From positions 1 to 46,606 of the forward strand of contig JAKLKB010000003.1 in the NCBI GenBank assembly GCA_023150835.1: DNA of 46,606 bases. Reading direction: 5' to 3'. How positions within the stretch are numbered: position 1 is the first letter of the stretch; each line of letters starts with the position of its first letter. The translations under genes were made by a program, and so were the position numbers. Of the stretch, positions 3,723 through 33,531 are shown in pieces. The notes under the pieces are model-generated. The model saw only the letters and a program-made list of their open reading frames with translations. It had not been told where the DNA came from and made no database searches. The stretch is from Myxococcota bacterium. Its GTDB lineage: Bacteria > Myxococcota_C > UBA6777.

Positions 3723-3730
3723 TCTGTGTA

Positions 3731-9353: not shown

Positions 9354-9364
9354 AGAGACCGCAG

Positions 9365-13510: not shown

Positions 13511-13569
13511 CACCCCCTACCCAACCAATAAACCATCTCCCCTAAAAACTAATCCAACCCCAAAAGACC

Positions 13570-14994: not shown

Positions 14995-15000
14995 TCCGAA

Positions 15001-15170
15001 TAGGAGCGACGCAGTTGGCCCAAAAAACCCGTGTTCGCGGTGTTTCAAGCGACAGAGCCGTTGGTAAAAAAAACGATGATCTCTTCGCCCCTCTCGGAGT
15101 CAAGGGGCGACAGTCTATGGCGGGGCGTGGGGTGAAACCCCACAAACACCCTCCGACTTCGTAAGTCCGA
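15001..15170. mobile_element. MITE family A, 170-bp form, starting 6 bp after the previous copy
   Basis: taggagcgacgcagttg...ggagtcaaggggcgacagtctatggcggggcgtggggtgaaacccca...cgtaagtccga. Confidence 0.78.
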
Positions 15171-15207
15171 CACGGAACAAATCGAGACAGAGGAAAGGGG
15201 AAACATC

Positions 15208-17855: not shown

Positions 17856-18855
17856 GGTGATGTACCTTTCGCAACAAAAAGGCCGCAAGGGCCACTTCCG
17901 CGATCACAAGCAAGCTCAAAAAGAAAAAGGTCTCTAGCCCGTCTTTCATCCAGCGGCCTACAAACACCGTTGAAACCACCACAAAACTCAGGGCGACCCC
18001 CACCAACGCAAACAGATCTACGCGGCGGAGCGCATACACCCACACCAGCAGCGGCATTCCAAGGACATAACCAAGCACCCAAAAAGGCCGAAAATGCGGG
18101 AGTTCATCGTGCATATAGCGGCTTTCCGTGATGACGAGGACCATCGCCGTAGATAGAGCATACAGGATCACGATCAACAACATACGAGGCACCCATCTCA
18201 CGGGGGTTTGCAACCACGGAAAGCGACGAATAGAGAGGTATTCCCACACGGCCAAGGCCACCGCATTCATCGCCATCATCGCGGATAATGCGGAAAGTCC
18301 ACCCAGACGATCTGGGATGACTTGAGCGCAAAACAACACGACCGTCAAAAGAACCAACACCCACCACACAAACCACGCAGCCGCAAGACGGCTGATCAGC
18401 ACCCACCCAAACACCAACAAGAACCATCCCAAAAACAACGTGAAGGCATCAGCCCCTGTCTGATACGTCTGCCCATACACCGCCAACAGCGGCCCCACCA
18501 ACAAGATCGCCAGCAACAGCGAAGCCTGCCCTCCAAGCTTCTCCAATCCCCGCTGCCAAGCGATCAACGCCGCCCCAAGGATCGCGATCTCCAACAGGCC
18601 GAACTTCACAAAACGCCCCATATTGGCCCAGTTGTAAGCAAAGAAAAAGATCACCCCCGCCACCAACAAACCGATGCCTAAAAACAAAAACACATACGAC
18701 ACAAACGCCCGCCATGTGATCCACGACGCACGTTCTTTCCCGATCCATTCGAGCGCATCCGTATGCGCTTCTTTCGACAAAAGACCTTCTTTTTCAAAGG
18801 CATCCAACTGCTCTGCCTTCACTTCGGTTCGTAACGCCCATGCGATATCAGCCAT
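17839..18855 (-). CDS. DUF2157 membrane protein
   Basis: GVIFFFAYNWANMGRFVKF, LLAVYGQTYQTGADAFTLFLGW. Confidence 0.9.
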   Translation of the reverse strand: MADIAWALRTEVKAEQLDAFEKEGLLSKEAHTDALEWIGKERASWITWRAFVSYVFLFLGIGLLVAGVIFFFAYNWANMGRFVKFGLLEIAILGAALIAWQRGLEKLGGQASLLLAILLVGPLLAVYGQTYQTGADAFTLFLGWFLLVFGWVLISRLAAAWFVWWVLVLLTVVLFCAQVIPDRLGGLSALSAMMAMNAVALAVWEYLSIRRFPWLQTPVRWVPRMLLIVILYALSTAMVLVITESRYMHDELPHFRPFWVLGYVLGMPLLVWVYALRRVDLFALVGVALSFVVVSTVFVGRWMKDGLETFFFLSLLVIAEVALAAFLLRKVHHHAQSK

Positions 18856-18879
18856 CGCGTCTTCCCTCCGTTGTTGTCC

Positions 18880-21321
18880 TCAAGGAACGATCTTCCCAAA
18901 AAAGAGATCAAATCCCAAGGGCTTATCTTTTCCATCAAAACGAGCGCCTTGGTATTCGACAGCCCCATCAAATGACGCAGCATAAAAGAGGCTGTCTTCC
19001 CCATCCACAAAAAAAACAGGCAGGCTTTGCAGAAAAAGACCGAAATTTCCGCCGATCTTTTGAATCGAATCAACCCACGTCGGCTCTCCGCTCATGGAGA
19101 GGCGCGAAAGGAAAATACTTTCTCTTTGTGTGTTGAGTTCTTGTTTTCCAAAAGTCATCTTTTTTGCGAAACGGCCCGTCATGTGGGGATTTTCTTTGGA
19201 GTCCAACAGAATCCCCAACGCTTCACTGCCCGCCTCTCCAACAAATGCTTTGCTCCAAAGCGCTTTACCTTGCGCGTCGAGGCCGACAACAAAAGCGTGT
19301 GCGTCGCTCGTTGGAGCCAAATGTTCAGGCAAGAGATCGACTTGCAGCTTTCCTCGAAAAGAACCCGCCACAAACACCCGTCCATCCGAAGCAACAGCGA
19401 TTCCACCGAATCGATCGTTTTCCTTTCCACCCAACGCACGCAGCCAAACCACCGCGTGTTGCGCGTTTAATTTCATCACAAAGATATCCGTGTCGGTAAG
19501 AGACTTCGAGGTGACGATCTGAGATCCCTCAGCAAAAATGCTTTGGAATGCGCCCGCCAAAAAGAGATCACCATTGCGTGCGAGATGGAAGCGTGGCCGT
19601 TGCATCTCACTTTGAAATCCTCTGATGGACAAAGCTTTTCCTTCAGCATCAAACTTCGCCAAAAAAAACGTTTTTGTCAGACCCGCTGAAGCAGCGCACC
19701 TTGGAGCATTTGCGTCGGCTCCAAGCTTTGTCTCAGACCCCACAAACCCTCCCAAAAGCAACAGCGTCCCATCCTCCGCAAGTTGGAGTTGATAGGCTTC
19801 TTCTTGGCTTGTCGTTCCGTACGATCTCGCCCACAAGATCTGACCATCCCGATCGATCTTCAACAAAAAGAGGTCTGTCCCCCCCGCTGCTTGTAGGCGT
19901 TGGCCGCCCTCCAAAAGATCTGTCTTGTAAGCCCCTGCGATGTAGCAATGCTCCAAAGCATCACAAACCACGCCTGCTGCCTTGGCAAACCCTTGTGAAC
20001 GAAGATGTTTGCTCCATCCCACCGCGCCTTCTTGGTTGAAGCGGACGACAAACACATCACTCGATTCTGTAAGCGTACCCGACTGAAAACTATCTTTTCC
20101 AAGAATTACCTTCCCCGAAAAATCGCCCACAAAGACCAACGATCGAGACGATTTGAGATAGCCAAACCCCCTAGGGACGGCCTCTGGAACGATCGTGTCG
20201 GCGAGGTATTGCGTCTGCATCAAGTTCATCCAACTGCAATGCTTTTGTGGGCAAGAGCAAACCCCCTTCTGGCAAGTCTTTTGAAAAAAGCAGCGGTTCC
20301 CACACGCGCCACAATGCCCACGGTCGGTCTGTAGATTCGCGCACTGGCCGCCGCAATCCGTCGGAGAATCCACACCACAAGTACAACGTCCCCCACTACA
20401 GACCTCGCCTGATTCACAGGTTCGACCACAAGCCCCGCAATTACGGGCATCACTCAACACATTGAAGCAGCGCTCTCCACAACAAGCCTCTCCTTGGAGA
20501 CAATCGGCTTCCTCACGACATGGCTTAATCGGAGAGACACAGACCATCTTCCCTTCGTCCGTTTGTACAGGGATCTTTTGACCGACGCACTCGCTCCATA
20601 CCCCTTCTGCCAAGCAGGTCTGTATGCCCTCTTTACACCCCGACTGTCCGATGGTTTTGGTTGGCCCACCATAACACCGCTGCGTCGACTTCGATTCGCA
20701 GCGACAACCTTCGTCGATCAACCCGTTGCAATTGTTGTCCAAACCATCATTGCAACGTTCGGAGATGGACAAGATCTGATCCAGACAAGGCCCCCACAAA
20801 AAATCATCTGCACAATACTGATAACCTGCTTGGCAAATACCTGTATTTAACAAAGAAAGATTCCCAGAAAAGCAGCTTCTTTTTTCTCCCGGGGTCGCAC
20901 ACTGGCACGATGCGCTCAATTCATCGTTCTGGCCGTTACAATCGTTGTCAAGACGATCACACACTTCTTTTTGAGGCAAGATCTGCCCCAAGCAAGGTGA
21001 CCAGACCCCAGAAGAAAGGCAGATCTTCTTCCCGCCACGACAAAGCCCCACATCCAACGTGCCCGCAGGCCCTTCATAACAAGATTGTTCTTGTCCAGCC
21101 TCGCACACCGAGGACTGGCAACGACCGCTCAAGCAATAGACCAACGGGGCACTGGCAGCGCAATCGCTGTGTTGAGAACAAGGTCTTTCTGCTTTTTCTA
21201 GGCATCCAGAAAAACACATCCCACACAACAACACACCCAACCAACCCCACCGCAAAGCCGGTCCCAACCCTCGCAACAAGCCTCTTCCCAACACGCCCGA
21301 TCCAACATCTTTATTTGCCAT
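18880..21321 (-). CDS. Cys-rich lipoprotein with DNDCNG-type metal-binding repeats, Stigma1-like Cys repeats and a C-terminal SBBP-like beta-propeller
   Basis: Lipobox FSGC; EVCDRLDNDCNG, ERCNDGLDNNCNG; DARNCGACG, DRGHCGACG; repeated D(V/L/I)F(V/L).K/R....G...W units. Confidence 0.8.
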   Translation of the reverse strand: MANKDVGSGVLGRGLLRGLGPALRWGWLGVLLCGMCFSGCLEKAERPCSQHSDCAASAPLVYCLSGRCQSSVCEAGQEQSCYEGPAGTLDVGLCRGGKKICLSSGVWSPCLGQILPQKEVCDRLDNDCNGQNDELSASCQCATPGEKRSCFSGNLSLLNTGICQAGYQYCADDFLWGPCLDQILSISERCNDGLDNNCNGLIDEGCRCESKSTQRCYGGPTKTIGQSGCKEGIQTCLAEGVWSECVGQKIPVQTDEGKMVCVSPIKPCREEADCLQGEACCGERCFNVLSDARNCGACGRTCESGEVCSGGRCTCGVDSPTDCGGQCANLQTDRGHCGACGNRCFFQKTCQKGVCSCPQKHCSWMNLMQTQYLADTIVPEAVPRGFGYLKSSRSLVFVGDFSGKVILGKDSFQSGTLTESSDVFVVRFNQEGAVGWSKHLRSQGFAKAAGVVCDALEHCYIAGAYKTDLLEGGQRLQAAGGTDLFLLKIDRDGQILWARSYGTTSQEEAYQLQLAEDGTLLLLGGFVGSETKLGADANAPRCAASAGLTKTFFLAKFDAEGKALSIRGFQSEMQRPRFHLARNGDLFLAGAFQSIFAEGSQIVTSKSLTDTDIFVMKLNAQHAVVWLRALGGKENDRFGGIAVASDGRVFVAGSFRGKLQVDLLPEHLAPTSDAHAFVVGLDAQGKALWSKAFVGEAGSEALGILLDSKENPHMTGRFAKKMTFGKQELNTQRESIFLSRLSMSGEPTWVDSIQKIGGNFGLFLQSLPVFFVDGEDSLFYAASFDGAVEYQGARFDGKDKPLGFDLFFGKIVP

Positions 21322-21480
21322 GAATTTCCCCGATGGTGGTTGCTCTTCTCAAAAAAAAGACCACTCTATGTTTTCCTGCCCTGCCTAGAAAACAGCAGGG
21401 AAGACGATTTGCTTCTTGGCATGACGGAACATACTCCCACATGCTTATCAAAAAAAGCCCAAAACTGCAAAGGACGATCT

Positions 21481-24453
21481 ATGTCACGAGCGATCACCCC
21501 CGCCGCCACCCACGACGCCGAAACCGCCTTATACGGATTCCGTATCACCCAAGTGACCGTCATCGAGGACATCAAAGTCCGCGCTTATGAGGCCACGCAC
21601 GAAAAAACAGGCGCACAAGTCCTCCACCTCCACTGCAACGACGAAGAGAACTTGTTTTCCGTCGGTTTCCGCACCCCTCCCCCCGATTCAACGGGCGTTG
21701 CGCATATCCTCGAACACAGCGTTCTCGCAGGTTCCGAAACCTACCCAGTCAAAGATGCCTTCAATGAACTCGGCAAGCGCACCCTCAACACCTTTCTCAA
21801 CGCGATGACATGGCCCGATCGCACCGTGTACCCCGTGGCTTCGGCGGTTCGTGCAGACTACTTCAATCTTGCCCGTGTATACGCTGATCTGGTGTTTCAC
21901 CCGCTGCTGCGAAAAGAGACCTTGCTTCAAGAAGGCCACCATCTCGAACTCGCCGATCCAGACGATCCGAACAGCCCGTTGATCATCAGCGGCATCGTCT
22001 ACAACGAGATGAAGGGCGTTTATGCTTCTCCTGAAAGTCTTGCCTATCGCGCCATCCAGCAAGAACTTCTCCCCAACACTCCTTACGGACTCGATTCGGG
22101 CGGAGATCCCGACAAGATCCCCGATCTCACCTACGAGGCCTTTGTCGACTTTCACCGACGATACTACTCCCCCTCAAACGCCCGCTTTTTTCTCTACGGC
22201 GACGTACCGCTCGATCAAAACCTTGCCTTTCTTGCCGAAGTACTGGCTCCTTTTGAGCGCGTACGAGTGGACTCTTCTCTTCCTGCACAACCGCGATTTA
22301 AGGAACCACGCCAAGTCAACGAGTCCTATCCTGTCGGTGATGACGAGCCTTTGGAGAAAAAAACCTTTGTCTCGTTGTGCTGGTTGGTGGGCGAGACCGT
22401 CGATGTTTTGGATAACTTGTTGATGGAGATCGCGATCAACGCCATCTATGGGACTTCTGCGGGTCCGCTGCGCAAGGCTTTGGTGGACTCGAAGCTTGGT
22501 CAAGATCTCTTCCCTTCTTCGGGCTTTGACAACGATATCCGCGAAAGCATTACACACGTCGGACTGCGTGGAACCGATCCCCAAAAGGCCGAAGACATCG
22601 AAGCCTTGATCTTTTCAACGCTGCGCCAGATCGTCAAAGAAGGCATCGATCCTGCGTTGATCGAAGCAACCTTCCATCAGATCGAGCTTTACGGCAAGGA
22701 GATCAACCCACCTTTTCCGATCATGCTGATGATGCGCGCCAATCCACCGTGGTTTTTTGGCGGCGATCCCAAGTCTGGGCTGACCTTTTCGACCTTGATC
22801 GAACAAGCCCGCGCTGCCTACCAAGCCAAGCCGCGCCTGTTTGAAGAGATGTTGCGCGAGCGCCTTATCGAAAATCCCCATCGCATCCGCTTGATCTTGC
22901 AACCCTCCAACACGCTCGCCCAAGAAAAACAAGCCGCCTTCCAAGCCAAGATGGCTGAACGCAAAGCCCAACTCAGCCCCGCTGAGATCGAATCCATCCG
23001 CCAAGAAGCCCTTGCCCTCAAAGAGTCCCAAGAAGCGCCGCCCGATCCCGAAGCCCTCGCCACCCTCCCCCAACTCGACCTCCACGATATCCCTCGTGAT
23101 GTCCGAACCATCCCCACCCAGATCCACTCGCTCGAAGGGGTGGAGATCGTCGAACATCCGCTGTTTACGAATGGTCTTGTGTACGTCGGTCTATCTTTCG
23201 ATATGAGGGATATCGCCGAACAGCACATCCCCTATCTCCCGCTGTTTGGGCGCGCCACCGTAGGACTTGGGGCAGCGGGCTTCACCTACGATCAGATGGC
23301 CGTCCGTATCGCCCAACACACGGGCGGTTTTGGAGCAAGCCCCACCGTTGGCCGCCACCTCCACAACCACGCTCCCTTTCAGCGCGTCCTGCTTGATGGA
23401 AAGTTCCTCCCACGCAACACCGACGAATTCTTTTCTATCCTGACGGATCTGCTCACCGCCTCCAACACCCGTGAATACGAGCGCCTGCGCGATCTGATCC
23501 GCGCTGCTGCCAGTCAAGCGCACAGCCGATTGATCCCGAGCGGCCACAACTTCGCCTATCTACGGGCCGCCGCTGCCTTAGACTTCACCCACTGGCGGCG
23601 CGAACAATGGGAAGGCACCACACAGATCCAATTCCTCCAAGGTCTTGTTCGCCGTCTTGACGAAGAGACCGAAGCGATCGCTCTACACATCGCCGACCTC
23701 CAAGCCCAGATCTTTGTGCGCAACCGCTTGCAGATCCACATCGCCGCTGATCCAGAGATCCTTGACGAGATCCACCCCCGTCTATCGGCCTTCTTGCGCG
23801 ATCTCCCCGCAGGCTCCCACGCGATCCCCACACCACCACCTCATCTCGATCTGCCCCGTCACATCGGTGTAGAGATCCCCGCAGAAGTCAACTACGTCGC
23901 GCAAGTCCTCCAAATGCCCGATATGCTTGATGCACGCGCCCCTGCTTTCGAGATGCTGGCCGAAGTCCTTTCCAACGATCTGCTCTATCAAAAGATCCGC
24001 GTTCAAGGCGGAGCCTACGGCGGTTTCTCGTTCTACTCAGGCGACTCGGGCTTGCTTCCGATGATGTCCTACCGCGATCCCAATCTGATCGAAACCCTCC
24101 AAGTCTTCGCAAACGTCGCTGAATACGCCAACTCCGACGCCATCAACGACGAAGCCATCGACGCTTCCCGCCTCGGTGCGGTCGGTGCGCTCGACCGTGT
24201 GCTTGCCCCCAAACAACAACTGGATGCGGCTCGGCGGCGGATGCTGCTCGGTATCACAGACGAGGATCGCCGTCGCTTCCGTATCGGTCTCCTTGAAGTC
24301 GACGCTCACCAAGTCCGCCAAGCTGCCGCCCTTCTCACACAAGCCACACAACACGCCACCACCGCTGCCCTTGGCGCTCGTGCCCGTCTCGAAGAAGCCA
24401 ACGCCCGCCTGTCTTCTCCCCTCACCCTCGTCTCCATCTCACCCAAATCCTAA
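21481..24453 (+). CDS. Insulinase family M16C metallopeptidase (presequence protease PreP-like)
   Basis: TGVAHILEHSVLAGS (HxxEH), TFLNAMTWPDRTVYP, GIVYNEMKG, SGGDP, IRVQGGAYGG, SYRDP. Confidence 0.93.
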   Translation: MSRAITPAATHDAETALYGFRITQVTVIEDIKVRAYEATHEKTGAQVLHLHCNDEENLFSVGFRTPPPDSTGVAHILEHSVLAGSETYPVKDAFNELGKRTLNTFLNAMTWPDRTVYPVASAVRADYFNLARVYADLVFHPLLRKETLLQEGHHLELADPDDPNSPLIISGIVYNEMKGVYASPESLAYRAIQQELLPNTPYGLDSGGDPDKIPDLTYEAFVDFHRRYYSPSNARFFLYGDVPLDQNLAFLAEVLAPFERVRVDSSLPAQPRFKEPRQVNESYPVGDDEPLEKKTFVSLCWLVGETVDVLDNLLMEIAINAIYGTSAGPLRKALVDSKLGQDLFPSSGFDNDIRESITHVGLRGTDPQKAEDIEALIFSTLRQIVKEGIDPALIEATFHQIELYGKEINPPFPIMLMMRANPPWFFGGDPKSGLTFSTLIEQARAAYQAKPRLFEEMLRERLIENPHRIRLILQPSNTLAQEKQAAFQAKMAERKAQLSPAEIESIRQEALALKESQEAPPDPEALATLPQLDLHDIPRDVRTIPTQIHSLEGVEIVEHPLFTNGLVYVGLSFDMRDIAEQHIPYLPLFGRATVGLGAAGFTYDQMAVRIAQHTGGFGASPTVGRHLHNHAPFQRVLLDGKFLPRNTDEFFSILTDLLTASNTREYERLRDLIRAAASQAHSRLIPSGHNFAYLRAAAALDFTHWRREQWEGTTQIQFLQGLVRRLDEETEAIALHIADLQAQIFVRNRLQIHIAADPEILDEIHPRLSAFLRDLPAGSHAIPTPPPHLDLPRHIGVEIPAEVNYVAQVLQMPDMLDARAPAFEMLAEVLSNDLLYQKIRVQGGAYGGFSFYSGDSGLLPMMSYRDPNLIETLQVFANVAEYANSDAINDEAIDASRLGAVGALDRVLAPKQQLDAARRRMLLGITDEDRRRFRIGLLEVDAHQVRQAAALLTQATQHATTAALGARARLEEANARLSSPLTLVSISPKS

Positions 24454-24474
24454 CACCGCCTAAATCTTCTTCGA

Positions 24475-25152
24475 TCACCCGAGATCTTCTTCCTTGACAT
24501 CATACACAACGGGTTGTGCGCGATAATCTTGAAGTTTTTTCATCCCTTTGAGCGTGCGCGCCAGCACTTTTTGCATCACTTGGTAGTTTGGAAGCTGGTG
24601 GCGGCGAAAGAGTGCGTATCCGCTCCACATCAGCTGTGCGCAGATATCCACGGGAACTTGCCCAGTTTGCGCACCAAGCCCGGGGATGGCCACCGAACGG
24701 ATCGGATCTGCGGGGTGTTTGTCGTTGTGGATGTGGATGGCTTGAAACGCCGCAGCGCAAGCCAACGCAACATTGACGGTTCCGCTGATGTCTTGGGCGG
24801 ATTCGTTCATGGTAGGTGTGGAGATCAGATAGCGCGGGATCTCCGCCCCCGTCTCCACACAAGTCGCACAACCCACCGGCAAAAAGCCATCGAATTGTTC
24901 CGCGATCGCGAATTGTACGCGCTCTTGGATGATATCGCCAAAATGCTCCACCAACACCCGATCCAATCCCCCGTCCATCTCGCCATGCGAGTTGGTGGGC
25001 GTCACCCAAGCATCGACCTCTTGCCGCAAGATCGAACCGTGACGGATCTCCAACTCCAACTCATCCAACGTACCCTCTCGCGCCAAAAATACTTCGCGCC
25101 AAGCCTTCATCATCTCTCGGTTGAGATCGATCAACACCACTTTTGTTTTCAC
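24475..25152 (-). CDS. Macrodomain protein (ADP-ribose binding/hydrolase, Appr-1-p processing type)
   Basis: HGSIL, VDAWVTPTNSHGEMDGGLD (N-x6-GG), YLISTPTM, SVAIPGLGAQTG; GTG start 25152 with AAGGGAGG RBS. Confidence 0.88.
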   Translation of the reverse strand: MKTKVVLIDLNREMMKAWREVFLAREGTLDELELEIRHGSILRQEVDAWVTPTNSHGEMDGGLDRVLVEHFGDIIQERVQFAIAEQFDGFLPVGCATCVETGAEIPRYLISTPTMNESAQDISGTVNVALACAAAFQAIHIHNDKHPADPIRSVAIPGLGAQTGQVPVDICAQLMWSGYALFRRHQLPNYQVMQKVLARTLKGMKKLQDYRAQPVVYDVKEEDLG

Positions 25153-25228
25153 CGCGAACCTCCCTTCGGATCGGCCTTTCACGCCTCATCCATCCATGTC
25201 CGACACAGCCTCCACCGCACCGAACCGC

Positions 25229-26683
25229 TCAGTACCATACGCGACCACCGCGAAACTCCACAAGATACGCCAGTTTCTGCTGTTTCTCGTCGTATACCAC
25301 AAACTCATCGTCTTCGAATTCCGTCCCGCGAACTCCGTGACAACTATGATACCCCTTCGGTGGAGCCTTGATACCGTACGTGATCTCTTCGTATTGCTTG
25401 ACGTGACCCAGCGCAACTTGGGCGATCGCCATGATCGAAGTTCCTTTTTTTCCCGCCGAAGTATAGCCCGAACTCGTACAAGCAGCGTTCCCAAAATACA
25501 TACCGCTCCCCAACCACCCTTCGTCCGTACGACCCACACCAAGCTTCACCACCACCTTCGGCATCAAGAGACCCCGCGACAAGATCCCCACCCAGTTTTG
25601 GATCCGCGAGCCATGAAAAAGCAGTTGATCGTTTCCGATATCGGCCAGATAACGGGCCTCTTCTTCGGGACGCGACACTTTGTAGATCTGCAAGACTTCG
25701 ATATCGTCCGTATCCACTTGGCTTTCCAATACCAAATCCTTGATCTTTTTGTGCTCGCTGCTTTTCGCCTCGATCGCTTCGACAGAACAGCCCAAAGCGG
25801 CATACTCTTCTTCTTCCTTCGCCTCGTGCAACAAGCCGCTCTCACCGTTGACGCGCAACATATCCTTCATCAATTGCAACGTCTCTTGTTTGGTTTGGTA
25901 GTTGTTTAAATCGCGGATAATCGCGGCTTCAGCAGCTTCACGGCTCCGACCAAAACGGTGCGGGATCACGGTGTAAAAAGCACTTGATAAATCGCGCAAG
26001 GTTTCCGCCACTTTCGGCGTCTGCTTTTTCTTTTGGAGCTGTTTGTAGATATCACCAAGGATCGATTCTCCCTGCTCGATCTGTCCGATGGTGAGGACAC
26101 CAAGAGGCGTCTCGATACCATGCGCGGTCACTTTGGCCTGAACACGCGAAGTCAGCGCTCCCACCGCTTCGTCGTACAGATAACGCACCAAACCACGCAC
26201 GGTCTCCTCCAGTCGCGGCAACGAAACTTTCGGCTCAGCGGGCTTTTCAACCTCGTTCACTTCGATCCGCTGCAAGGTCTTTTCGTCGACCTCGCCGCTG
26301 CTGCTTCCTCGTGCTTTTTGTGAGCCGATCTTGCTGCTCGCCAACGCCACTTCGCGGTAGCCTTTGCGCGCCGAAGTCTTTTCTTTGTAGATCTGATCGT
26401 ACACCGCTTCCGCTTCGGGCTTGCTATCGAGATAACGACACTCTTTCTGCCCGCTGTCTGGATTGTTTTCCAAATCATCTGTGCGGCCATAATGCGTAAA
26501 AACCCGAAACGCTTGACCTTTTTTGATGGCTTTCGCGTGATGCAACTCGATGGCGTAATACTTGTTTCGATTGGTCTTGATATCCGTCACTTGCAACACG
26601 GCCTTCTTGAGGATCTCGAACTCTTCTGGATACTTCGGTTGCCCTGCGTCATCCCACTTCCACGTCACCACTCGAACCGCCAT
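25229..26683 (-). CDS. Poly(ADP-ribose) polymerase family protein: WGR + PARP regulatory + catalytic ART domain
   Basis: WGR-like TDIKTNRNKYYAIEL...THYGR; regulatory TPLGVLTIGQIEQG...LSSAFYTVIPHRFG; catalytic LLFHGS, GSGMYFG, VALG, FEDDEFVVY; ATG 26683 with AAAGGAG. Confidence 0.93.
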   Translation of the reverse strand: MAVRVVTWKWDDAGQPKYPEEFEILKKAVLQVTDIKTNRNKYYAIELHHAKAIKKGQAFRVFTHYGRTDDLENNPDSGQKECRYLDSKPEAEAVYDQIYKEKTSARKGYREVALASSKIGSQKARGSSSGEVDEKTLQRIEVNEVEKPAEPKVSLPRLEETVRGLVRYLYDEAVGALTSRVQAKVTAHGIETPLGVLTIGQIEQGESILGDIYKQLQKKKQTPKVAETLRDLSSAFYTVIPHRFGRSREAAEAAIIRDLNNYQTKQETLQLMKDMLRVNGESGLLHEAKEEEEYAALGCSVEAIEAKSSEHKKIKDLVLESQVDTDDIEVLQIYKVSRPEEEARYLADIGNDQLLFHGSRIQNWVGILSRGLLMPKVVVKLGVGRTDEGWLGSGMYFGNAACTSSGYTSAGKKGTSIMAIAQVALGHVKQYEEITYGIKAPPKGYHSCHGVRGTEFEDDEFVVYDEKQQKLAYLVEFRGGRVWY

Positions 26684-26793
26684 CGCCAACTCCTTTCGTT
26701 TCTCAAACACCGACAACGCCCTTCGCTCTGTCGTACGCTTGGCTCTCTTTCTTGACGCATCCTGACACACTCGCGTAAAAAATCAAATCCATA

Positions 26794-26963
26794 GAGGACT
26801 TACGCGGTGGGGTTTGTTTGGTGGGGTTTTACCCCACGCCCCACAAGGGAGCCCGGCTCCCTTGACCCCGCATTGGCGAAGAGATCACAGGTTTTTCAAC
26901 CAGACGACCCTGTCGCTTGAGCTTGTACGAACACGGCTTTTTTGGGCAACTGCGTAAGTCCTA
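26794..26963. mobile_element. MITE family A, intact 170-bp form
   Basis: gaggacttacgc...gcgtaagtccta terminal inverted repeats around ccccacgccccacaagggagcccggctcccttgacccc. Confidence 0.85.
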
Positions 26964-27140
26964 TCCTATATCGAGGATGACGTCAGCCCCACCAAAAGAA
27001 AAGGTCGATGCAGGCATCTTTTGGCGAATTACCCCTTGCGCTGCTCCGCCAATTTACGCAAGATTCAAACCCACCAAACGCCACTCCGAGAGAACCCAAA
27101 AGTCTACGCAATCCCCTCACTCCAAGCAAAGGAACCCACC

Positions 27141-27920
27141 ATGCAGATATCTTGTCCTAGCTGCAAAAATCCCGTGATGTTCGAAGATATCAATCACAAA
27201 AAACGAATCGCCAAATGCGCTTCTTGTCACGAAGTCTTTCGTTTTTCTGAAGATGACCTCACCACCACAAACTCCTCACACAAAGCCAACGAATTAGACA
27301 CTCCAGACGCCCAAGAAACAAAAGAGGAAAGTCACACAAAAGCCCCTCCAAGATCCGCCGATCCCTCTCAAGAACCCGCATTATTCGCCCTTCCTTCAGG
27401 CGTAACGCTCCAACGCGACGAGCAACAACTGCGCATCCACTGGCGTTGGTATACACCCGTGGCCTATCTCATGGTGTTCATCGGCATCGCTTGGAATGTC
27501 TCCCTGCTCTCGATGATCTGGAAAACATTCAGCGGTGATTTCATTGCTGAAGTCGTTCCGTGTTTTTTTCTTGTCTTTGGTTTCGGCCTAATCTACGCTG
27601 GCATCGTATTCCTCGTCAACGAAACCACGATCAGCGTCCAACACAAAACACTCTCCATCCGCCATACTCCTTTGCCTTGGTCGGGAAATCGTACCTTTTC
27701 TGTTGATGATCTCGAACAATTCTTCTGCAAACAACACATCTGCCGTAAAAAACGCGAAACATCGGTGGGCTACGGACTTTATGCCATCTCACGCAACGGA
27801 AAACAAATCGAGATCCTCAATGGCATCGAAGATCCCGAAAAAGTATGGTTCATCGAGCGAATTCTCGAAGAGCACCTTGGCATCGCCGATCAAAGAGTAT
27901 TCGGCGAATACAAGGGCTAA
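27141..27920 (+). CDS. Zn-ribbon / two-TM hypothetical membrane protein, paralogue 1
   Basis: CPSC...CASC, linker, LRIHWRWY, 2 TM, SIRHTPLPWSGNR, LEQFFCK, LEEHLGI.D..V.GE. Confidence 0.8.
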   Translation: MQISCPSCKNPVMFEDINHKKRIAKCASCHEVFRFSEDDLTTTNSSHKANELDTPDAQETKEESHTKAPPRSADPSQEPALFALPSGVTLQRDEQQLRIHWRWYTPVAYLMVFIGIAWNVSLLSMIWKTFSGDFIAEVVPCFFLVFGFGLIYAGIVFLVNETTISVQHKTLSIRHTPLPWSGNRTFSVDDLEQFFCKQHICRKKRETSVGYGLYAISRNGKQIEILNGIEDPEKVWFIERILEEHLGIADQRVFGEYKG

Positions 27921-28034
27921 TACGAGATCCGCCTGTTGAGTGATCGTAAAAACGTAGGGGCAGCCCCCTGTGGCTGCCCAAGGATAGGGCGTCTGGGCGC
28001 TATCCTTCGAGCACAGATCACTCGGATTTCGTAT
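27920..28034. mobile_element. MITE family B (115 bp) carrying a GTAG REP
   Basis: TIR atacgagatccg/cggatttcgtat; reverse-orientation copy at 41789-41903. Confidence 0.8.
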
Positions 28035-28119
28035 CAGAGGGTGTTTGCGAAATAGCGATATCTTTTGGACTGGTACACAGAAACATCGGAGGAATGGACG
28101 TCTTGTGATGTCCCCTCTT

Positions 28120-28259
28120 ATACGAAATCCGCCCGTTGAGTTATCGTAAAAATGTAGGGGCAGACAGGTGTGGCTGCCCAACCATCGGGCGGTTCGCGAA
28201 CCGCCCCTACATCATGCGATCATACATGACGCGGAGATATCGCGTTCAGATCTCGCTAT
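28120..28259. mobile_element. Degenerate MITE family B copy with an inverted pair of REPs
   Basis: atacgaaatccgcccgttgag...gtaggggcagacaggtgtggctgccc...gggcggttcgcgaaccgcccctac...agatctcgctat. Confidence 0.65.
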
Positions 28260-28285
28260 GTTAGACACCCTCTAACCGATATCAC

Positions 28286-28330
28286 GCTCGCATCGCCGAT
28301 CAAAAAGTATTCGGCGAATACAAGCGCCGA
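28286..28330 (+). pseudogene. 3'-end relic of a Zn-ribbon paralogue
   Basis: gcatcgccgatcaaaaagtattcggcgaatacaag nearly identical to the end of paralogue 1 (about 27880-27914). Confidence 0.65.
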
Positions 28331-28397
28331 TCGGCTCGACATCGAAAAAGAAACCCCCAAAGGACGAAGCAACCCACTCCAAGCAAAGGAATCCACC

Positions 28398-29243
28398 ATG
28401 CATCTCTCTTGTCCTAGTTGCAAAAATACCGTGATATCCGAAGATATCAACATCAACAAAATGATCGCCAAATGTGCTTCTTGCCAAGCCGTCTTTCGTT
28501 TTTCCGAAGACGACCTCGCCACCGCAAGCTCCCAACATAACACCAACGACCAAGAAGCCCCCATCAAGGAAGAAAGCACGGGTAGAGAACACAGTACAGA
28601 CTCGAATGACCCATCCCAAAAACGCCCCCAAGAACCCATGGTTGGGTTGTTTTGGTTGTCAGGCTTGATCGACTTATTTCAAAAATACCTCCAAGAGCCC
28701 GCCCAACCCGACGTCCTCGCAGGCGTAACGTTCCAACGTGACGAGCAACACCTGCGCATCCACTGGCGTTGGTTTCGGCCTGCCGCTTACTTCGTGGCGG
28801 GCGTTAGCTTGTTTGTGAACCTTTTCTTGATCTCTTGGATGAGAAACGTTGTGGGGAGTGGTTTGGGGGAAATCCTGTTTTCGTTACCTTTTTGTGTGGC
28901 GGGCGGGGGCCTTATCTTCTTGACCCTCGCTCTCTTCCTCAACGAAACCACCGTGACCGTCCAACACGGAAAACTCTCCATCCGCCACGCCCCGTTGCCT
29001 TGGTGGGGCAATCGCACCCTTCCCATCGAGGATCTCGAACAACTCTTCTGCAAAAAAAATCTCACACACAGCAAAGACGGTAAAACAGGCTTCTACGAAC
29101 TTCACGCCATCTTGCGCAACGGACAACAGATCACTCTACTTCAATACCACGAAGAACCCGAAAAAGTCTTATTCATCGAACAACTTCTCGAAGAACACCT
29201 CGGCATCGTCGATCAACCTGTACTCGGCGAATACAAGGGCTGA
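28398..29243 (+). CDS. Zn-ribbon / two-TM hypothetical membrane protein, paralogue 2
   Basis: CPSC...CASC; same domain order and C-terminal LEEHLGIVDQPVLGEYKG. Confidence 0.8.
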   Translation: MHLSCPSCKNTVISEDININKMIAKCASCQAVFRFSEDDLATASSQHNTNDQEAPIKEESTGREHSTDSNDPSQKRPQEPMVGLFWLSGLIDLFQKYLQEPAQPDVLAGVTFQRDEQHLRIHWRWFRPAAYFVAGVSLFVNLFLISWMRNVVGSGLGEILFSLPFCVAGGGLIFLTLALFLNETTVTVQHGKLSIRHAPLPWWGNRTLPIEDLEQLFCKKNLTHSKDGKTGFYELHAILRNGQQITLLQYHEEPEKVLFIEQLLEEHLGIVDQPVLGEYKG

Positions 29244-29332
29244 TCGGCTCAATGCCCAGCAGAGACAGTCTAGAACAAACAAAACCCTACATCTCCCGCA
29301 ATTTCCCCTCAATCCAAGCAAAGGAGCCCACC

Positions 29333-30139
29333 ATGCAGATCTTCTGCCCCCACTGCAAAAATCCGATCAATTCTGAAGGCATCAACCTTGACAGGCTGAT
29401 CGCTAAATGTACTTCTTGCCGTGCTGTCTTTCGTTTTTCCGAAGACGAACTCGCCACGACAAGCCCCGAACGCGATGACAACAACCCAAAGCCTACCACG
29501 GCTCAAGACACAGAAGAAAACAGCCTCAGAAAAGGCCCTATCAACCGCCCTCAAAGACGTTCTCCTCGTATCCAAGAGCCGATCCCCCTCGATGTTCCCG
29601 AAGGCATGACGCTGCAACACGACGAACATTCTCTGCGTGTCCGTTGGCGCTGGTTTACGTTTGAAGCGAGCGCTGTCGCGCTTGTTTGCGCGCTCTTCGT
29701 CGGCGCGGCTCTGGCCCTCTACAACGAAACCAAGTCGAGTTACGCGTATGACTCTCTCTGGCCCATTCTGTTCTTAATCCTGTGCTTTCTCGGCGTAAGC
29801 ATGGCCCTTTTGTACTACTCTCTCGCACTTCTCATCAACGCCACCACCCTCACCATCCAAAACGGGCTGTTGTCTATCCAGCACGCCCCTTTGCCTTGGT
29901 GGGGCAACCGCACCCTTCCTGCCGAAGAATTCGAGCAGTTCTACTGCAAACAACGTGTCTCCCGCGGGAAATACCGCCTGTTCTTTACCTACGAACTCCA
30001 CGCCATCTTGCGCAAAAAACAACGAATTAAACTTCTCTCGGGAATAAGTGAGATAGAAAAAGTCTTATTTCTCGAACGACTCATCGAAGATCATCTCGGC
30101 ATTGTCGATCGACCTGTACTCGGTGAATTAGAACCTTGA
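29333..30139 (+). CDS. Zn-ribbon / two-TM hypothetical membrane protein, paralogue 3
   Basis: CPHC...CTSC; same leader tccaagcaaaggagcccaccATG; IEDHLGIVDRPVLGE. Confidence 0.8.
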   Translation: MQIFCPHCKNPINSEGINLDRLIAKCTSCRAVFRFSEDELATTSPERDDNNPKPTTAQDTEENSLRKGPINRPQRRSPRIQEPIPLDVPEGMTLQHDEHSLRVRWRWFTFEASAVALVCALFVGAALALYNETKSSYAYDSLWPILFLILCFLGVSMALLYYSLALLINATTLTIQNGLLSIQHAPLPWWGNRTLPAEEFEQFYCKQRVSRGKYRLFFTYELHAILRKKQRIKLLSGISEIEKVLFLERLIEDHLGIVDRPVLGELEP

Positions 30140-30286
30140 GCGGCAAGCCAAGTTCTACACAAGCTAAAGAAAGCACAGCAGGCACAATGCAACACCTTTG
30201 TCCGATCTGCAAAACTCCCATGCGCCCCAAGATATCAACCCAGAGAAACAAACCGCACTTTTCCTAACGGCAACCAGACGGCACTC

Positions 30287-30390
30287 TTGGAAGGGGCGGA
30301 CGATCCTCAAATGATCCATTTCGTGAAATCGGTACTCGACGAACATCTCGATATCACCGATACGCCCGCACCCGACGAACACAAGGGCCG
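30287..30390 (+). pseudogene. C-terminal relic of a further Zn-ribbon paralogue
   Basis: EGADDPQMIHFVKSVLDEHLDITDTPAPDEHKG aligns by eye with GIEDPEKVWFIERILEEHLGIADQRVFGEYKG. Confidence 0.55.
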
Positions 30391-30543
30391 ATCAACCCAA
30401 CGCTCGTTTGAATTGGACGATCGCTCCCGCGCCTCTTGCCAAGTTCACGTTTCGGCCTATGCTCAAACACCAACACGCGAAAGGCCGCGTTGACAAGAAG
30501 ACAACAGCTTCTTGCCAACGTCGCCTTTCCACATAATTACCGA

Positions 30544-30659
30544 TAGGACTTACGCAGTTGAAAAGGGAAACCCTGAGATATCAGAACGTTGTAGGGGCGG
30601 TTTGCGAACCGCCCACGCCCGAACATGGGCCTTTTTCGTATCGAACTGCGTAAGTCCTA
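30544..30659. mobile_element. MITE family A, 116-bp REP-carrying form
   Basis: Perfect TIR taggacttacgcagtt/aactgcgtaagtccta; exact 6-bp duplication TACCGA (30538-43, 30660-65). Confidence 0.9.
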
Positions 30660-30687
30660 TACCGATAAAAATAAAGGAAACGATCGG

Positions 30688-33531
30688 ATGAAACTGACTT
30701 TTTTGGGCGGTGCAGACGAAGTGGGAGCTTCTTGTACGCTGGTGGAGATCGCAGGAAAGCGGATCTTGGTGGATTGCGGCATCCGTATGAATCCACGTGA
30801 TGGCGATAGCCTACCGTGGCTTGCGCCGATCCAAGAGGGCGGTGGATTGGACGCGATCATCCTGACTCATGCGCACATGGATCACCTTGGCGCGATGCCG
30901 ATTATCCACCAAAGCTATCCCAACGTGCCGATTTATATGACTCCTCCGACGGTTGCCCTTTCGCAGATCCTTTTGCTCGACTCGCTCAAGATCATGCAAG
31001 GCAACTACGAGCGCGAAGGCGATATCCCCTTGTATCCGCCAAATGCCGCCGAAGGACTCTTGCAACAAGCGCGTCCCGTACACATGAAACAAGAGCTTCG
31101 GCTTTTTGATGGGAAACTGTCCGTCTTTTTCTTTCCTGCGGGCCATATCCTCGGAGCAGCCTGTGTCTACCTCGTTTCCAAAGAAGGCTCGATCTTGATG
31201 GGCGGCGATATCTCTTGCACCGACCAACTCACCATCCCCGGCCTCGAACTCCCCAAGATCCGCCCCGATGTTGTCGTCATGGAGTCCACTTACGGGGGAC
31301 GTTTGCACGCCAACCGCAAGGCCGAAGAAACACGCATCATCCAGCAAGTCCAAAAAGTCCTCGAACAAAAAGGAGCCATCCTCTTTCCCGCTTTTGCCAT
31401 CGGACGGGCGCAAGAGGTGATCTTGATCTTGTCGCGTGCGATGGAAAAAAAGCAGATCCCCGAAGCACCGATCTTTATCGACGGTATGGTCAAGCAAGTC
31501 TGCGGCATCTACCGCTCTTTCCCCGAATACTTGACCTCGTGGATGAAAAAGCGCACCGAGCGGCTCAGCGATCCCTTCTTCTTTGAAAAAGGTGCGGCGA
31601 TCCCCGTCTATTCGCCCCAAGAGCGCGAAAAAGCCGCCAAGCTCCGTCCTGCGATCTTTGTCTCTAGTTCAGGGATGCTCACAGGCGGTCCAAGCCCCTT
31701 TTACGCAAGCGAACTCGCCGAACACGAAAACTGCTGGATCGGCATCACAGGCTACCAAGACGAAGAAGCCCCGGGCCGTCGTATCCAAGAAGTCTTCAGC
31801 GCAGGAGGCGGCGAACTCGACCTGTACGGAAAGCGCGTCAAACTTCGCTGTGGCGTCGGCACATACGGACTCAGCGCACACGCAGATACCTCGCAGATCG
31901 TTTCTGTGCTCCATGCCCTCGCACCCCGCGAGATCTTCTTGGTTCACGGAGATGAAAAGGCCCGTGAAGCCCTTCAAACGGCCTTGATCCAAGCAGGAAC
32001 CGAAAACGTCCACCTCCCCCACATCGGCGAAGAAAACGAACTCAAGGGGACGGCAGGGGGATATCTTTGGCGAGAACGCCGCCAACATCACCCTGCCTAC
32101 AAAGCTGCCGCCGAAAAAGCCCGTACAGGCCGCGATGCCGAGATCGAGTCAGGACCGCTCACCCACGCCAGTCTACTCCCACTCTCCACCCTCTTGCTCC
32201 AACGCGACGGCGCAAACCGCGCTTACACCGCAACCGAAGCGATGGAAGCATGGGGCTACCCTCCCGCCGCCATCACCAAAGCCGAAGTCGAGCGCATCAA
32301 CGAACTCTTGCGCGCCCCCGACGCTCCCTTCCGCGCTGACCGCAGCAACAAATACCTCTTCCGTGTCCGCGTCTTCCAAAACGACCCGCGCACCGCCATC
32401 GACAAAGCCAACGAAGCCTTCGATCACCTCGAACAAGCCCAAGCCCCCTCAAAAACCACGCTCCCCAAACCTTCACAAAACGCCGATCCATCGGCATCAC
32501 ACGAAACCATCTCCCAACGCCACACCCCTCCAACTGTCCGCCTCCCCCACAACAAGCGCAAAACCACCGCCCCCGCATCCCCCCTAGACATCGACCAATC
32601 CGACGATCTCCCCTCCAAACCTCTCCCCCAAGCCCGCGTGCTTCAAATCGTCGACGAACTCTTCCCGCCCCAAACCACCCTCTACAAACGCAGCATCACA
32701 CCCGGTCTTGATTGCATCACCCTCGCCTTTCACTTCCCACACACCGCCCAGCGCGTCTACCAAACCCAACTCCAACAACTCCGCGATCGCACCCGTTGGG
32801 CTGTCCAACTCCGTCCCCAACCCCACCTCCAAGCCCTCCAAGAAAAAGCCCTCGAACTCCTTGCGGGCCGATGGACTTTCGAGGGATCGATCCCTGTCCA
32901 CCTCGATCGCCTTGCGATCGTCTTGCCGATTACTGTACTCCCCGAACAACACGAAGACTTCGCCGCCATCCAACGCCAATTCACCCAAGAAACGGGCTTT
33001 TCTCTCGAAGCCAAAGACTACGTTGGACTTCTCCCACCTTCTCTTTCACCCACCTCTCTTTCTCACGAAGAACAACTCCACGGACTCCCCCAGTCCTCGG
33101 GCGCGATCCGTCTGGCGGTCGCCCAAAAAATGGAGATCAACGCCGCCTACCAGCACATCCGCGATACCTTTGCCTCCTTGCCACACAAACCCTACAAGAT
33201 CGGTCTAAAAGGAGGAACCTTTATCGAACTCGCCTTTGTTACTCCCAAAGTCGGCGCATTGTACCGAAATAAACTGGATCAAATTCAAGAAGAGATCGGT
33301 CGCATCATCCGTATTTATCCCCAAGCCAATCAGCACGAACTCAAAGGGCTTGCGCGACGCTTGCTTCCTGCTCCTTGGAACACCTTTCTCGCCAAAGAAC
33401 CCCAATACACGCACGGTCAAGACGTGATCCGTGTCGTCATGACTAGCGCCCCGCCTACCGAGATCCAAACCCTTGCCCAAAAACAATTTTACGAACAGAC
33501 GCTTTTTAAGTTAATCTTCTCCCTACGCTAA
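30688..33531 (+). CDS. beta-CASP MBL-fold ribonuclease (CPSF73/YSH1-like) with a long C-terminal extension
   Basis: FLGGADEVGASC, LVDCG, THAHMDH, AGHILG, GD, ESTYG, PAFAIGRAQE, SSGMLTGG, GYQDEE, SAHAD, VHG. Confidence 0.9.
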   Translation: MKLTFLGGADEVGASCTLVEIAGKRILVDCGIRMNPRDGDSLPWLAPIQEGGGLDAIILTHAHMDHLGAMPIIHQSYPNVPIYMTPPTVALSQILLLDSLKIMQGNYEREGDIPLYPPNAAEGLLQQARPVHMKQELRLFDGKLSVFFFPAGHILGAACVYLVSKEGSILMGGDISCTDQLTIPGLELPKIRPDVVVMESTYGGRLHANRKAEETRIIQQVQKVLEQKGAILFPAFAIGRAQEVILILSRAMEKKQIPEAPIFIDGMVKQVCGIYRSFPEYLTSWMKKRTERLSDPFFFEKGAAIPVYSPQEREKAAKLRPAIFVSSSGMLTGGPSPFYASELAEHENCWIGITGYQDEEAPGRRIQEVFSAGGGELDLYGKRVKLRCGVGTYGLSAHADTSQIVSVLHALAPREIFLVHGDEKAREALQTALIQAGTENVHLPHIGEENELKGTAGGYLWRERRQHHPAYKAAAEKARTGRDAEIESGPLTHASLLPLSTLLLQRDGANRAYTATEAMEAWGYPPAAITKAEVERINELLRAPDAPFRADRSNKYLFRVRVFQNDPRTAIDKANEAFDHLEQAQAPSKTTLPKPSQNADPSASHETISQRHTPPTVRLPHNKRKTTAPASPLDIDQSDDLPSKPLPQARVLQIVDELFPPQTTLYKRSITPGLDCITLAFHFPHTAQRVYQTQLQQLRDRTRWAVQLRPQPHLQALQEKALELLAGRWTFEGSIPVHLDRLAIVLPITVLPEQHEDFAAIQRQFTQETGFSLEAKDYVGLLPPSLSPTSLSHEEQLHGLPQSSGAIRLAVAQKMEINAAYQHIRDTFASLPHKPYKIGLKGGTFIELAFVTPKVGALYRNKLDQIQEEIGRIIRIYPQANQHELKGLARRLLPAPWNTFLAKEPQYTHGQDVIRVVMTSAPPTEIQTLAQKQFYEQTLFKLIFSLR

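Follow-up and report, generated by a model that had tools for sequence, protein, structure and literature searches.

The window analysed here (a 46,606-nucleotide stretch of contig JAKLKB010000003.1 of a Myxococcota bacterium from sludge) carries on its reverse strand a gene for a PARP-family ADP-ribosyltransferase (ART), designated P0001, followed by a gene for a macrodomain protein. Based on the domains and motifs of the two proteins and the conservation of their genes as a pair, we consider it moderately probable that they constitute an autoinhibited, nucleic-acid-gated ADP-ribosyltransferase and a co-transcribed hydrolase that would reset it. A macrodomain gene follows the PARP gene in 69 of 80 related loci. 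In 49 of the 80, the pair, as judged from the proteins encoded downstream of it, heads a type XIII retron (Mx162-class) operon, and at the window locus no reverse transcriptase (RT), SWIM or HEAT partner of such a retron lies beside the pair. The features of the pair are as follows.

25229–26683, reverse strand: gene of the PARP-family ADP-ribosyltransferase P0001, 484 amino acids, with a WGR domain, a helical regulatory domain and an ART domain (open reading frame and translation)
26348–26605, reverse strand: WGR domain, residues 27–112 (Pfam WGR; same span in the whole-genome scan)
26276–26344, reverse strand: Ser/Lys-rich linker LASSKIGSQKARGxSSGxxDxKTL, residues 114–136, nearly invariant and predicted to be unstructured
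25856–26212, reverse strand: PARP regulatory (helical, autoinhibitory) domain, residues 158–276 (Pfam PARP_reg; model helices 160–297)
25250–25762, reverse strand: ART catalytic domain, residues 308–478 (Pfam PARP; PARP4 alignment through residue 478)
25613–25615, 25496–25498 and 25304–25306, reverse strand: H357, Y396 and E460, the H-Y-E triad of P0001 (PARP4 alignment)
25153–25228, reverse strand: intergenic spacer of 76 nucleotides (nt) with the ribosome-binding site (RBS) of the macrodomain gene (sequence)
24475–25152, reverse strand: macrodomain protein gene, 225 amino acids from the GTG at 25152 (Pfam Macro)
24961–24993, reverse strand: N64-x6-G71-G72-L73-D74 loop of the macrodomain, which reads N64 SHGEMD G71 G72 L73 D74 in P0002 numbering (alignment)

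Domain architecture and active site of the PARP

The P0001 gene starts at an ATG codon with AAAGGAG just 5′ of it. With the curated Pfam cut-offs (gathering scores), all three domains of the protein were detected: WGR (PF05406; residues 27–112, 35.5 bits, cut-off 22, E = 1.1e-8), PARP_reg (PF02877; residues 158–276, 62.1 bits, cut-off 26.8, E = 7.4e-17), and PARP (PF00644; residues 308–452, 101.6 bits, cut-off 26.7, E = 5.3e-29), the last of which also exceeded its cut-off in a scan of the whole source genome (G000). The order of WGR, regulatory, and catalytic domains that the original prediction had read from the protein of about 484 residues was thus borne out. Only one WGR and one PARP domain were found in the whole-genome scan. 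The motif that gives the WGR domain its name is Tyr65-Gly66-Arg67 in P0001, not W-G-R, and it is Y-G-R in 81 of 81 aligned family members.

The Ser/Lys-rich linker that follows the WGR domain is conserved at 90% or more across 81 sequences, with invariant columns at Leu114, Ala115, Ser116, Ile119, Gly120, Ser121, Gly126, Ser128, Gly130, Asp133, and Thr136. The AlphaFold2 (AF2) model of P0001 is of moderate confidence (mean predicted local distance difference test (pLDDT) score of 73.5); in the linker, the pLDDT is 57–63 in the 10-residue blocks of residues 111–130 and below 50 from residue 127. This segment may be a site of automodification or of partner binding or docking.

The H-Y-E triad, also claimed from the start, is intact. 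The FHGS, GMYFG, and DEFVVY segments of P0001 align with LHGS, GIYF, and DEFVVY of human PARP4, and His357 and Tyr396 are each retained in 81 of 81 family members and Glu460 in 80 of 81, the exception being a gap. Among solved PARPs, chains of human PARP4 are the best matches to P0001 (E = 8e-47, residues 187–478), followed by PARP1 (about 5e-25), PARP2, and PARP3; the values for PARP4 and PARP1 rule out a chance resemblance. Amoebozoan multidomain PARPs (Balamuthia, Pelomyxa, Arcella, dictyostelids, and Acanthamoeba) show 34–48% identity over ~93–99% of the query, and animal PARP4 proteins mostly ~24–36%. By these comparisons, the nearest relatives of the part of P0001 comprising the helical domain (HD) and ART are human PARP4 and the amoebozoan PARPs, and PARP1 is more distant.

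Because PARP4 is reported, in the accessible part of PMC10450202, to hold a cryptic WGR domain and HD in its PARP1-like part, the WGR-HD-ART layout appears to be common to P0001 and PARP4. In contrast to PARP4 and the amoebozoan PARPs, P0001 is without BRCT, ankyrin, VIT/vWA, and MVP-interaction regions and is a stand-alone 484-residue protein of a bacterial operon. The H-Y-E triad alone does not predict polymer synthesis, because the closest solved relative is titled ‘Protein mono-ADP-ribosyltransferase PARP4’.

The macrodomain protein

A co-oriented macrodomain gene with its own RBS had been placed 76 nt after the PARP gene, and this assignment held: the RBS GAAGGGAGG lies at 25159–25167, 6 nt before the GTG start codon, and the protein scores 38.9 bits against Pfam Macro (PF01661; cut-off 22, E = 9.2e-10). 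P0002 is a 235-residue reading of the same open reading frame (ORF) from a GTG further upstream, given in a program-made ORF list; we placed the start at GTG 25152 (225 residues) because 21 aligned homologues begin with MKTKVV or MxxKV.

The AF2 model of the macrodomain protein has a pLDDT of 83. Its top match in Foldseek is yeast Ymx7 (YMR087W; 1njr in the Protein Data Bank (PDB)), with E = 1.2e-10 and 23% identity over 209 columns, followed by DarG (5m3i, 2.9e-7; 5m3e, 4.9e-7), macroH2A1.1, YmdB, MacroD2, and Af1521. In all, 135 PDB matches have an E-value of 0.001 or less, the listed ones being for the most part macrodomain proteins or designs derived from them. A sequence search against the PDB yielded Ymx7 alone, weakly (E = 0.014). 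Ymx7, the best match by both sequence and fold, shares the P-x-N-S-x-G-x-x-x-G-G-x-D loop with the macrodomain protein; the identity between the two is low, and the window protein differs in being encoded in a bacterial operon with a PARP.

Asn64, Gly71, Gly72, and Asp74 of the loop are invariant in 22 sequences. We take the N-x6-GG-[VLI]-D pattern to be the ADP-ribose-binding/catalytic loop that is the signature of MacroD-type hydrolases. The protein does not belong to the NCBIfam equivalogs for ADP-ribose-binding proteins or O-acetyl-ADP-ribose deacetylases (best NF001666, 67.7 bits versus a cut-off of 246), and by its sequence it is assigned to a separate macro subfamily.

Spread of the family and conservation of the pair

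When one representative genome of each GTDB species was scanned with a profile, 113 stretches encoding a relative of P0001 were obtained, of which the best 80 loci were analysed. At the protein level, 8000 candidates were scored and 857 clusters had an E-value of 0.001 or less; the 120 clusters listed all have the same three-domain layout except for one 411-residue entry without the catalytic domain. The rarity of full PARPs in bacteria, given as established in the original prediction, is therefore out of date for these phyla. P0001 is a member of a known family that has far more members than the printed counts, which in the accessible parts of PMC5966428 and PMC4245714 range from 28 to 72 bacterial PARP sequences, attributed to sporadic horizontal acquisition.

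The loci come mostly from Myxococcota and Planctomycetota (including the cultured Tautonia sociabilis GM2012), with a few from Acidobacteriota and further ones in records labelled Lysobacterales, Xanthomonas, Alcaligenaceae, or Proteobacteria. At least four phyla are represented, and the identity to the window PARP is ~51–62% for related loci of other genera. The PARP gene is present in three of six genomes of the GTDB phylum of the source and is patchy in the wider sample of relatives (3 of 41 genomes). The pair also occurs in another genus of the same small phylum (L004), with different flanking genes.

In the 69 loci with a macrodomain homologue, it is downstream of the PARP gene and shares its strand; the conservation of the pair across genomes that had been put forward as a check was thus found. 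The gap between the high-scoring segment pairs of the two genes is 192 nt or less in 65 of the 69 and 308, 345, 706, and 1534 nt in the other four. The macrodomain homologue was not seen in 11 loci, of which 10 have the PARP alone with room for a partner and one is too short to call. In 18 of the 80 loci, the pair stands by itself although 1.5 kb or more of sequence follows it, and in two more the sequence beyond it is too short to tell. The PARP and macrodomain distances are correlated (Mantel r = 0.67, n = 69).

In a quick maximum-likelihood tree, the window, L005 (an independently assembled metagenome-assembled genome (MAG) of the same genus), and L006 form a clade with a Shimodaira–Hasegawa-like approximate likelihood ratio (SH-aLRT) support of 99, all members of which are pair-only, and a separate clade of nine members is also pair-only. 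The bare pair has been kept across the divergence between the window and L006 (62% identity). On this tree, pair-only states require at least six changes and PARP-alone states at least two; because several changes are needed, the bare pair is a stable state that arose or persisted several times.

Type XIII retron operons in relatives

Retrons are an element class known for phage defence, and type XIII is, to our knowledge, the oldest known retron class, with accessory proteins that have no assigned mechanism. It is the class of Mx162, Mx65, Sa163, and Ne144 (Mestre et al. 2020, PMC7736814). Three further genes that recur after the macrodomain gene were found by clustering the neighbouring ORFs, and the third of them encodes an RT (Pfam RVT_1). 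When the proteins of locus L078 were used in tblastn against the 80 loci, 49 gave a HEAT-repeat protein of ~850 residues, 42 a SWIM zinc-finger protein of ~560 residues, and 31 the RT. Wherever a locus with the HEAT gene extends far enough, the SWIM gene is present, and wherever more than 1044 nt remain after the SWIM gene, so is the RT gene. The type XIII gene set is found in 31 related loci; in 18 others, the end of the locus cuts it short. Another neighbour-gene cluster, ‘C5’, was dropped as an artefact of antisense ORFs over the SWIM gene.

The PADLOC models support the assignment, with SWIM_XIII at 5.7e-176 and RT_XIII at 5.5e-160 and 8.9e-167. The HEAT protein matches WGR_XIII/HEAT-ARM_XIII at 6.4e-106, covering only positions 109–554 of the 973 in the WGR_XIII profile, and no Pfam WGR domain was detected in the three HEAT proteins scanned from PARP-linked operons (0 of 3). 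Apart from one locus (L019), the PARP is the only WGR-bearing protein seen in these operons. The genes are tightly spaced in L078 (7448–8236, 8273–10816, 10813–12504, and then from 12532 onward), and the PARP distances are correlated with those of HEAT (Mantel r = 0.82, n = 43) and SWIM (r = 0.76, n = 37). Such Mantel correlations show co-inheritance, not interaction.

In the 49 loci, the PARP-macrodomain pair is followed by proteins that score as the HEAT-ARM_XIII/WGR_XIII, SWIM_XIII, and RT_XIII of the named type XIII retrons. These operons differ from such retrons in that the HEAT protein is without its usual WGR part. The full PARP-macrodomain-HEAT-SWIM-RT operon is present in the cultured T. 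sociabilis GM2012 (L088), where the HEAT gene (13402–15936, reverse strand) is read as two ORFs of 327 and 504 residues and is split or frameshifted. A second T. sociabilis locus (L092, 565–9857, forward strand) encodes a giant 2467-residue HEAT-ARM_XIII protein and then a SWIM_XIII protein; it has no PARP, and no RT was detected among the five ORFs scanned in its 16 kb. The HEAT-SWIM module thus also exists apart from the PARP.

Several PARP-linked operons have further ADP-ribose-related genes. In four loci, the PARP gene is closely preceded by an ARH gene (49–100% identity to the query, itself one of the four), with two weak matches in addition, and in L087 an ARH gene is on the opposite strand by the PARP-macrodomain-retron operon. 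In L086, a 1058-residue fusion of ARH with a complete NAD-dependent LigA (TIGR00575, 482 bits; 9029–12205, forward strand) directly follows the retron RT. In the exceptional planctomycete locus L019, the gene of the main PARP is preceded by that of another WGR-PARP paralogue, which is divergent, has 618 residues, and gives no PARP_reg match (3388–5244, forward strand).

In the source genome, which is 93% complete, neither SWIM_XIII nor homologues of the L078 SWIM and HEAT proteins were detected. The gene for a PreP-type M16 peptidase runs convergently to the macrodomain gene and ends 21 nt past its stop codon, leaving no room for HEAT, SWIM, or RT remnants adjoining the pair. A 721-residue protein with two tandem retron-type RT domains, an unusual double RT, is encoded on another contig of the genome (C85; L089, 1375–3540, reverse strand). 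Its best PADLOC match is RT_XIII (7.4e-110), with RT_III-A near (9.4e-93), and it looks unrelated. The retron operon of the 49 relatives, absent at the window locus itself, and the PARP4-like catalytic part were not visible when the window was first interpreted.

Integrity, selection, and expression of the locus

Positions 17023–32530 of the window are colinear with L005 at ~93–94% nucleotide identity, the colinearity being broken once, by an indel at 18874–21458 that lies away from the pair. The GC content is even across the PARP-macrodomain region. The contig is not chimeric at the pair, and the assembly artefact that could have undone the original prediction is thereby dismissed. Relative to L005, the nonsynonymous and synonymous divergences (dN/dS) are 0.019/0.252 (0.08) for the PARP and 0.0125/0.270 (0.05) for the macrodomain gene, and therefore both genes are under purifying selection.

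Two contigs from metatranscriptome libraries of one activated-sludge sample, X15 (24480–25307) and X16 (25100–25283), cover the macrodomain gene and bridge the junction to the PARP gene. Together with the 76-nt gap and its RBS, these RNA contigs give a weak hint that the pair is one transcription unit. Short pieces of the PARP gene were also found at 95–99% likeness in the RNA libraries of a second study. The parts of the PARP gene at 25332–25553 and 26553–26774 are uncovered by RNA contigs, which is no evidence of absence. A promoter and terminator scan of 24200–27100 returned two promoter-like and two terminator-like signals (1.2 and 2.8 expected, respectively), none usefully placed, and no Rfam family reached its gathering score in 20000–31000.

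Proposed mechanism

In the model that follows, all of the biochemistry is inferred, as are the ligand and the physiological role. The two genes would form one transcription unit whose products write and erase ADP-ribosylation. The writer would be a PARP of the PARP4/amoebozoan branch, whose helical domain would hold the H-Y-E site closed until the WGR domain binds nucleic acid; candidate ligands are a DNA end, a nick, and a structured single strand. Once activated, the PARP would transfer ADP-ribose from NAD+ to itself, to other proteins or nucleic-acid ends, or to both. The product is probably single units or short chains (mono- or oligo-ADP-ribosylation), which are favoured because the catalytic domain is PARP4-like and the partner is a macrodomain protein, not PARG. 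The eraser, a putative Ymx7/MacroD-like macrodomain with the N-x6-GG-L-D loop, would remove the modification or process ADP-ribose products and so reset the system.

In the retron-bearing relatives, the WGR domain of the PARP probably reads the multicopy single-stranded DNA (msDNA), because the HEAT accessory protein is without its WGR part. The conservation of the pair at the head of the retron operon suggests that it responds to foreign or damaged DNA, and the linkage gives indirect support to a defence-type role. Because its lineage keeps only the pair, the window pair must work without a retron, and it most likely senses foreign or broken DNA directly, in defence or a stress response. Its kinship with retron-linked modules favours such a role in conflict or stress over routine repair.

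Tentatively, the model can be extended to the whole family. The PARP and the macrodomain protein would be the effector and reset arm of retron immunity: in Mx162-class retrons, the WGR-PARP would monitor the msDNA, phage-disturbed msDNA would fire an NAD+-consuming ADP-ribosylation response, and the macrodomain protein would restrain and reset it. The window module would be a form freed from the retron that detects the ends of foreign DNA by itself, and its PARP lineage would be the sister or source of PARP4 and the amoebozoan PARPs. This extension is doubtful, and we offer it as a conjecture.

Several observations weigh against the favoured model of a gated writer with a co-transcribed eraser and a role in defence or stress. 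The junction-bridging RNA contigs are no proof of a single transcript and could also be produced by DNA carry-over. The 10 loci with an intact PARP and no macrodomain gene indicate that the eraser is dispensable in some lineages. The nearest solved relative of the macrodomain protein is annotated as an ADP-ribose-1″-monophosphatase, and by analogy the protein may act on metabolites and not on modified macromolecules. P0001 matches none of the PADLOC families (E ≤ 0.01) and so falls to no known defence system, and its WGR domain does not match the WGR_XIII profile. The neighbours of the pair in the window are housekeeping-like (the PreP-type M16 peptidase, a beta-CASP nuclease, a glycosyltransferase, and an ECF sigma/FecR pair), and the surroundings are not a defence island. 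A bacterial-type PARG (PF10021, 6.1e-51) is encoded on the same contig (G000:C70:78702–79163, forward strand), ~52 kb from the PARP and not in its operon; PARP and PARG thus occur in one genome, as expected of bacterial poly-ADP-ribose metabolism, and this would fit such metabolism and a repair-type role equally well. With five ARH (PF03747) matches in addition, the set of ADP-ribose writers and erasers predicted from the sequence of G000 is complete. As for the order of retron loss and gain, the paralog outgroup sits on a branch of ~10 changes per site, and a root this unreliable favours neither direction.

Alternative explanations

The main alternative is DNA-damage signalling as in eukaryotic PARP1–3, in which P0001 would sense chromosomal breaks and mark itself or repair factors, the macrodomain protein, PARG, and ARH would recycle the modification, and phage would play no part. 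We regard it as unlikely, though stronger than the other alternatives. WGR-HD-ART is the break-sensing core of PARP1–3 in the accessible part of bioRxiv 10.64898/2026.10.17.759577, and the activity of the Herpetosiphon PARP requires DNA according to the accessible parts of PMC4245714 and PMC8120803. Proteins P0242–P0246 of Acidobacteriota (Thermoanaerobaculia), 48–55% identical to P0001, have an ATP-dependent DNA ligase core fused to WGR-PARP_reg-PARP. In eukaryotic relatives, the fusion partner is a uracil-DNA glycosylase, a DNA 3′-phosphatase, or a BRCT domain, the ARH-LigA fusion lies beside the operon in L086, and the PARG and ARH complement of G000 would serve this role. In contrast, no repair gene adjoins the pair in the window, the spread among the 41 relatives searched is patchy, and 49 of the 80 loci are tied, physically and in their evolution, to a retron.

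A toxin-antitoxin or abortive-infection system like DarTG, in which the PARP would be a growth-arresting toxin acting by NAD+ depletion or DNA ADP-ribosylation and the macrodomain protein its enzymatic antitoxin, is quite improbable. The two systems share the order of an ART gene and then a macrodomain gene, here tightly spaced, and DarG macrodomains give the second and third best folds; PARP1–3 can ADP-ribosylate DNA and RNA, as stated in the accessible part of PMC8053099. However, the intact PARP is alone in 10 loci, in five of which the 10 neighbouring ORFs checked have no Macro, PARG, or ARH domain. P0001 is a PARP-type ART with a built-in autoinhibitory domain, not a DarT-type ART (0 PADLOC families), and the 225-residue macrodomain protein is without the C-terminal domain of DarG. 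It also falls far below the DarG models (12.7 bits versus a cut-off of 250 for NCBIfam antitoxin_DarG; E = 0.0013 in PADLOC, over the macro part only). The initial interpretation, a reversible two-gene ADP-ribosylation circuit, is supported in part: the architecture, the conservation of the pair, purifying selection, and weak RNA bridging speak for it, and its toxin-antitoxin-like variant is weakened.

It is very improbable that the macrodomain protein is a metabolite enzyme (an ADP-ribose-1″-phosphate phosphatase or O-acetyl-ADP-ribose deacetylase) that clears by-products of NAD+, serving detoxification and not signalling. The title of the Ymx7 structure points in this direction, as do homologues annotated ‘O-acetyl-ADP-ribose deacetylase’ or ‘Appr-1-p processing protein’ and the presence of the same macro family in Streptomyces, Nonomuraea, and Streptosporangium records. 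These annotations, however, are automatic names and not assays, and the strict downstream linkage to the PARP in 69 of 80 loci and the correlated divergence of the two proteins (r = 0.67) argue against this reading. That the pair has no present function and is a decaying remnant, left either by a retron operon since lost or by a eukaryotic gene transfer, is extremely improbable: the retron partners were not found in G000 and the gene is patchy among relatives, but neither ORF is disrupted, all invariant residues are kept, the dN/dS ratios are 0.08 and 0.05, and the bare pair persists both across the window–L006 divergence and in the separate nine-member clade.

Other features of the window

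Divergently from the PARP gene, three tandem paralogues with an N-terminal CxxC...CxxC zinc ribbon and predicted membrane helices are encoded as follows.

27021–27920, forward strand: zinc-ribbon membrane protein, first paralogue
28398–29243, forward strand: zinc-ribbon membrane protein, second paralogue
29252–30139, forward strand: zinc-ribbon membrane protein, third paralogue

A truncated fourth paralogue, a similar C-terminal piece, lies at 30287–30493. These proteins match no Pfam family; their genes are kept in L005 and are not beside the pair in L004 and L006. A 50-nt element with two hairpins (26823–26872) lies in the intergenic stretch preceding the PARP gene; it recurs seven times in G000 at three or fewer mismatches, against none for the reversed control. 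Its contig depth in one of the RNA libraries is high (152), with many different flanks, and it looks like a REP-like (repetitive extragenic palindromic) dispersed repeat.

The ORF at 18880–21321 (reverse strand) encodes an 813-residue Cys-rich, secreted-looking protein with a MopE-type metal-binding motif and STIG1-like character. It fills the 18874–21458 interval, which has no blastn match in L005, where the flanking matches are only ~280 nt apart. An AAA_21/AAA_15 (AbiEii/OLD-type) ATPase (7134–9353, forward strand) and a Ser/Thr kinase fused to HEAT repeats (9957–13226, forward strand) are encoded 12–19 kb from the pair and are unlinked to it in other genomes.

Relation to known bacterial PARPs and implications

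Bacterial WGR-PARP_reg-PARP proteins are already in print (accessible parts of PMC5966428 and PMC4245714), and deltaproteobacterial proteins with the WGR/PARP_reg/PARP_cat layout were listed in 2018 (accessible parts of PMC5966428 and PMC8120803). In the parts of these three papers that were accessible, bacterial PARPs are regarded as sporadic imports from eukaryotes with no function assigned. Compared by description only, HaPARP and CdPARP have the same layout and H-Y-E triad as P0001. They are discussed with a PARG elsewhere in the genome, whereas the family of P0001 has an operonic macrodomain gene in 69 of 80 loci; further differences are that the best solved match of P0001 is PARP4, not PARP1, and that most of its relatives are in a retron operon. 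WGR-bearing ATP-dependent ligases are also known, in delta-proteobacteria and Planctomycetia (accessible part of PMC7470946).

Neither an operonic PARP-macrodomain pair nor a PARP in a retron operon was found in the literature searched, which did not extend to supplementary tables and most subscription journals. The main text of PMC7736814 has no occurrence of ‘PARP’ or ‘macro’ (its supplementary tables lie outside this count), and PMC13712802 has none of ‘PARP’ or ‘ADP-ribos’. Among the papers listed for WGR, phage, and bacteria, none ties a PARP to a retron or to defence; ‘WGR’ in PMC12475279 is a membrane dye and not the domain.

Unlike the sporadic imports of the earlier view, the PARP family described here is large and well conserved, with a fixed macrodomain partner and usually a place in a retron operon. 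The model gives a bacterial PARP a concrete and testable function, and it makes ADP-ribosylation a candidate biochemical output for type XIII retrons. The bare pair of the window is the minimal form and would be the simplest to reconstitute. The PARP4-like catalytic domain bears on the origin of the eukaryotic vault-PARP branch, and if the tentative extension to retron immunity is true, a bacterial defence module would be linked to a rapidly evolving vertebrate PARP.

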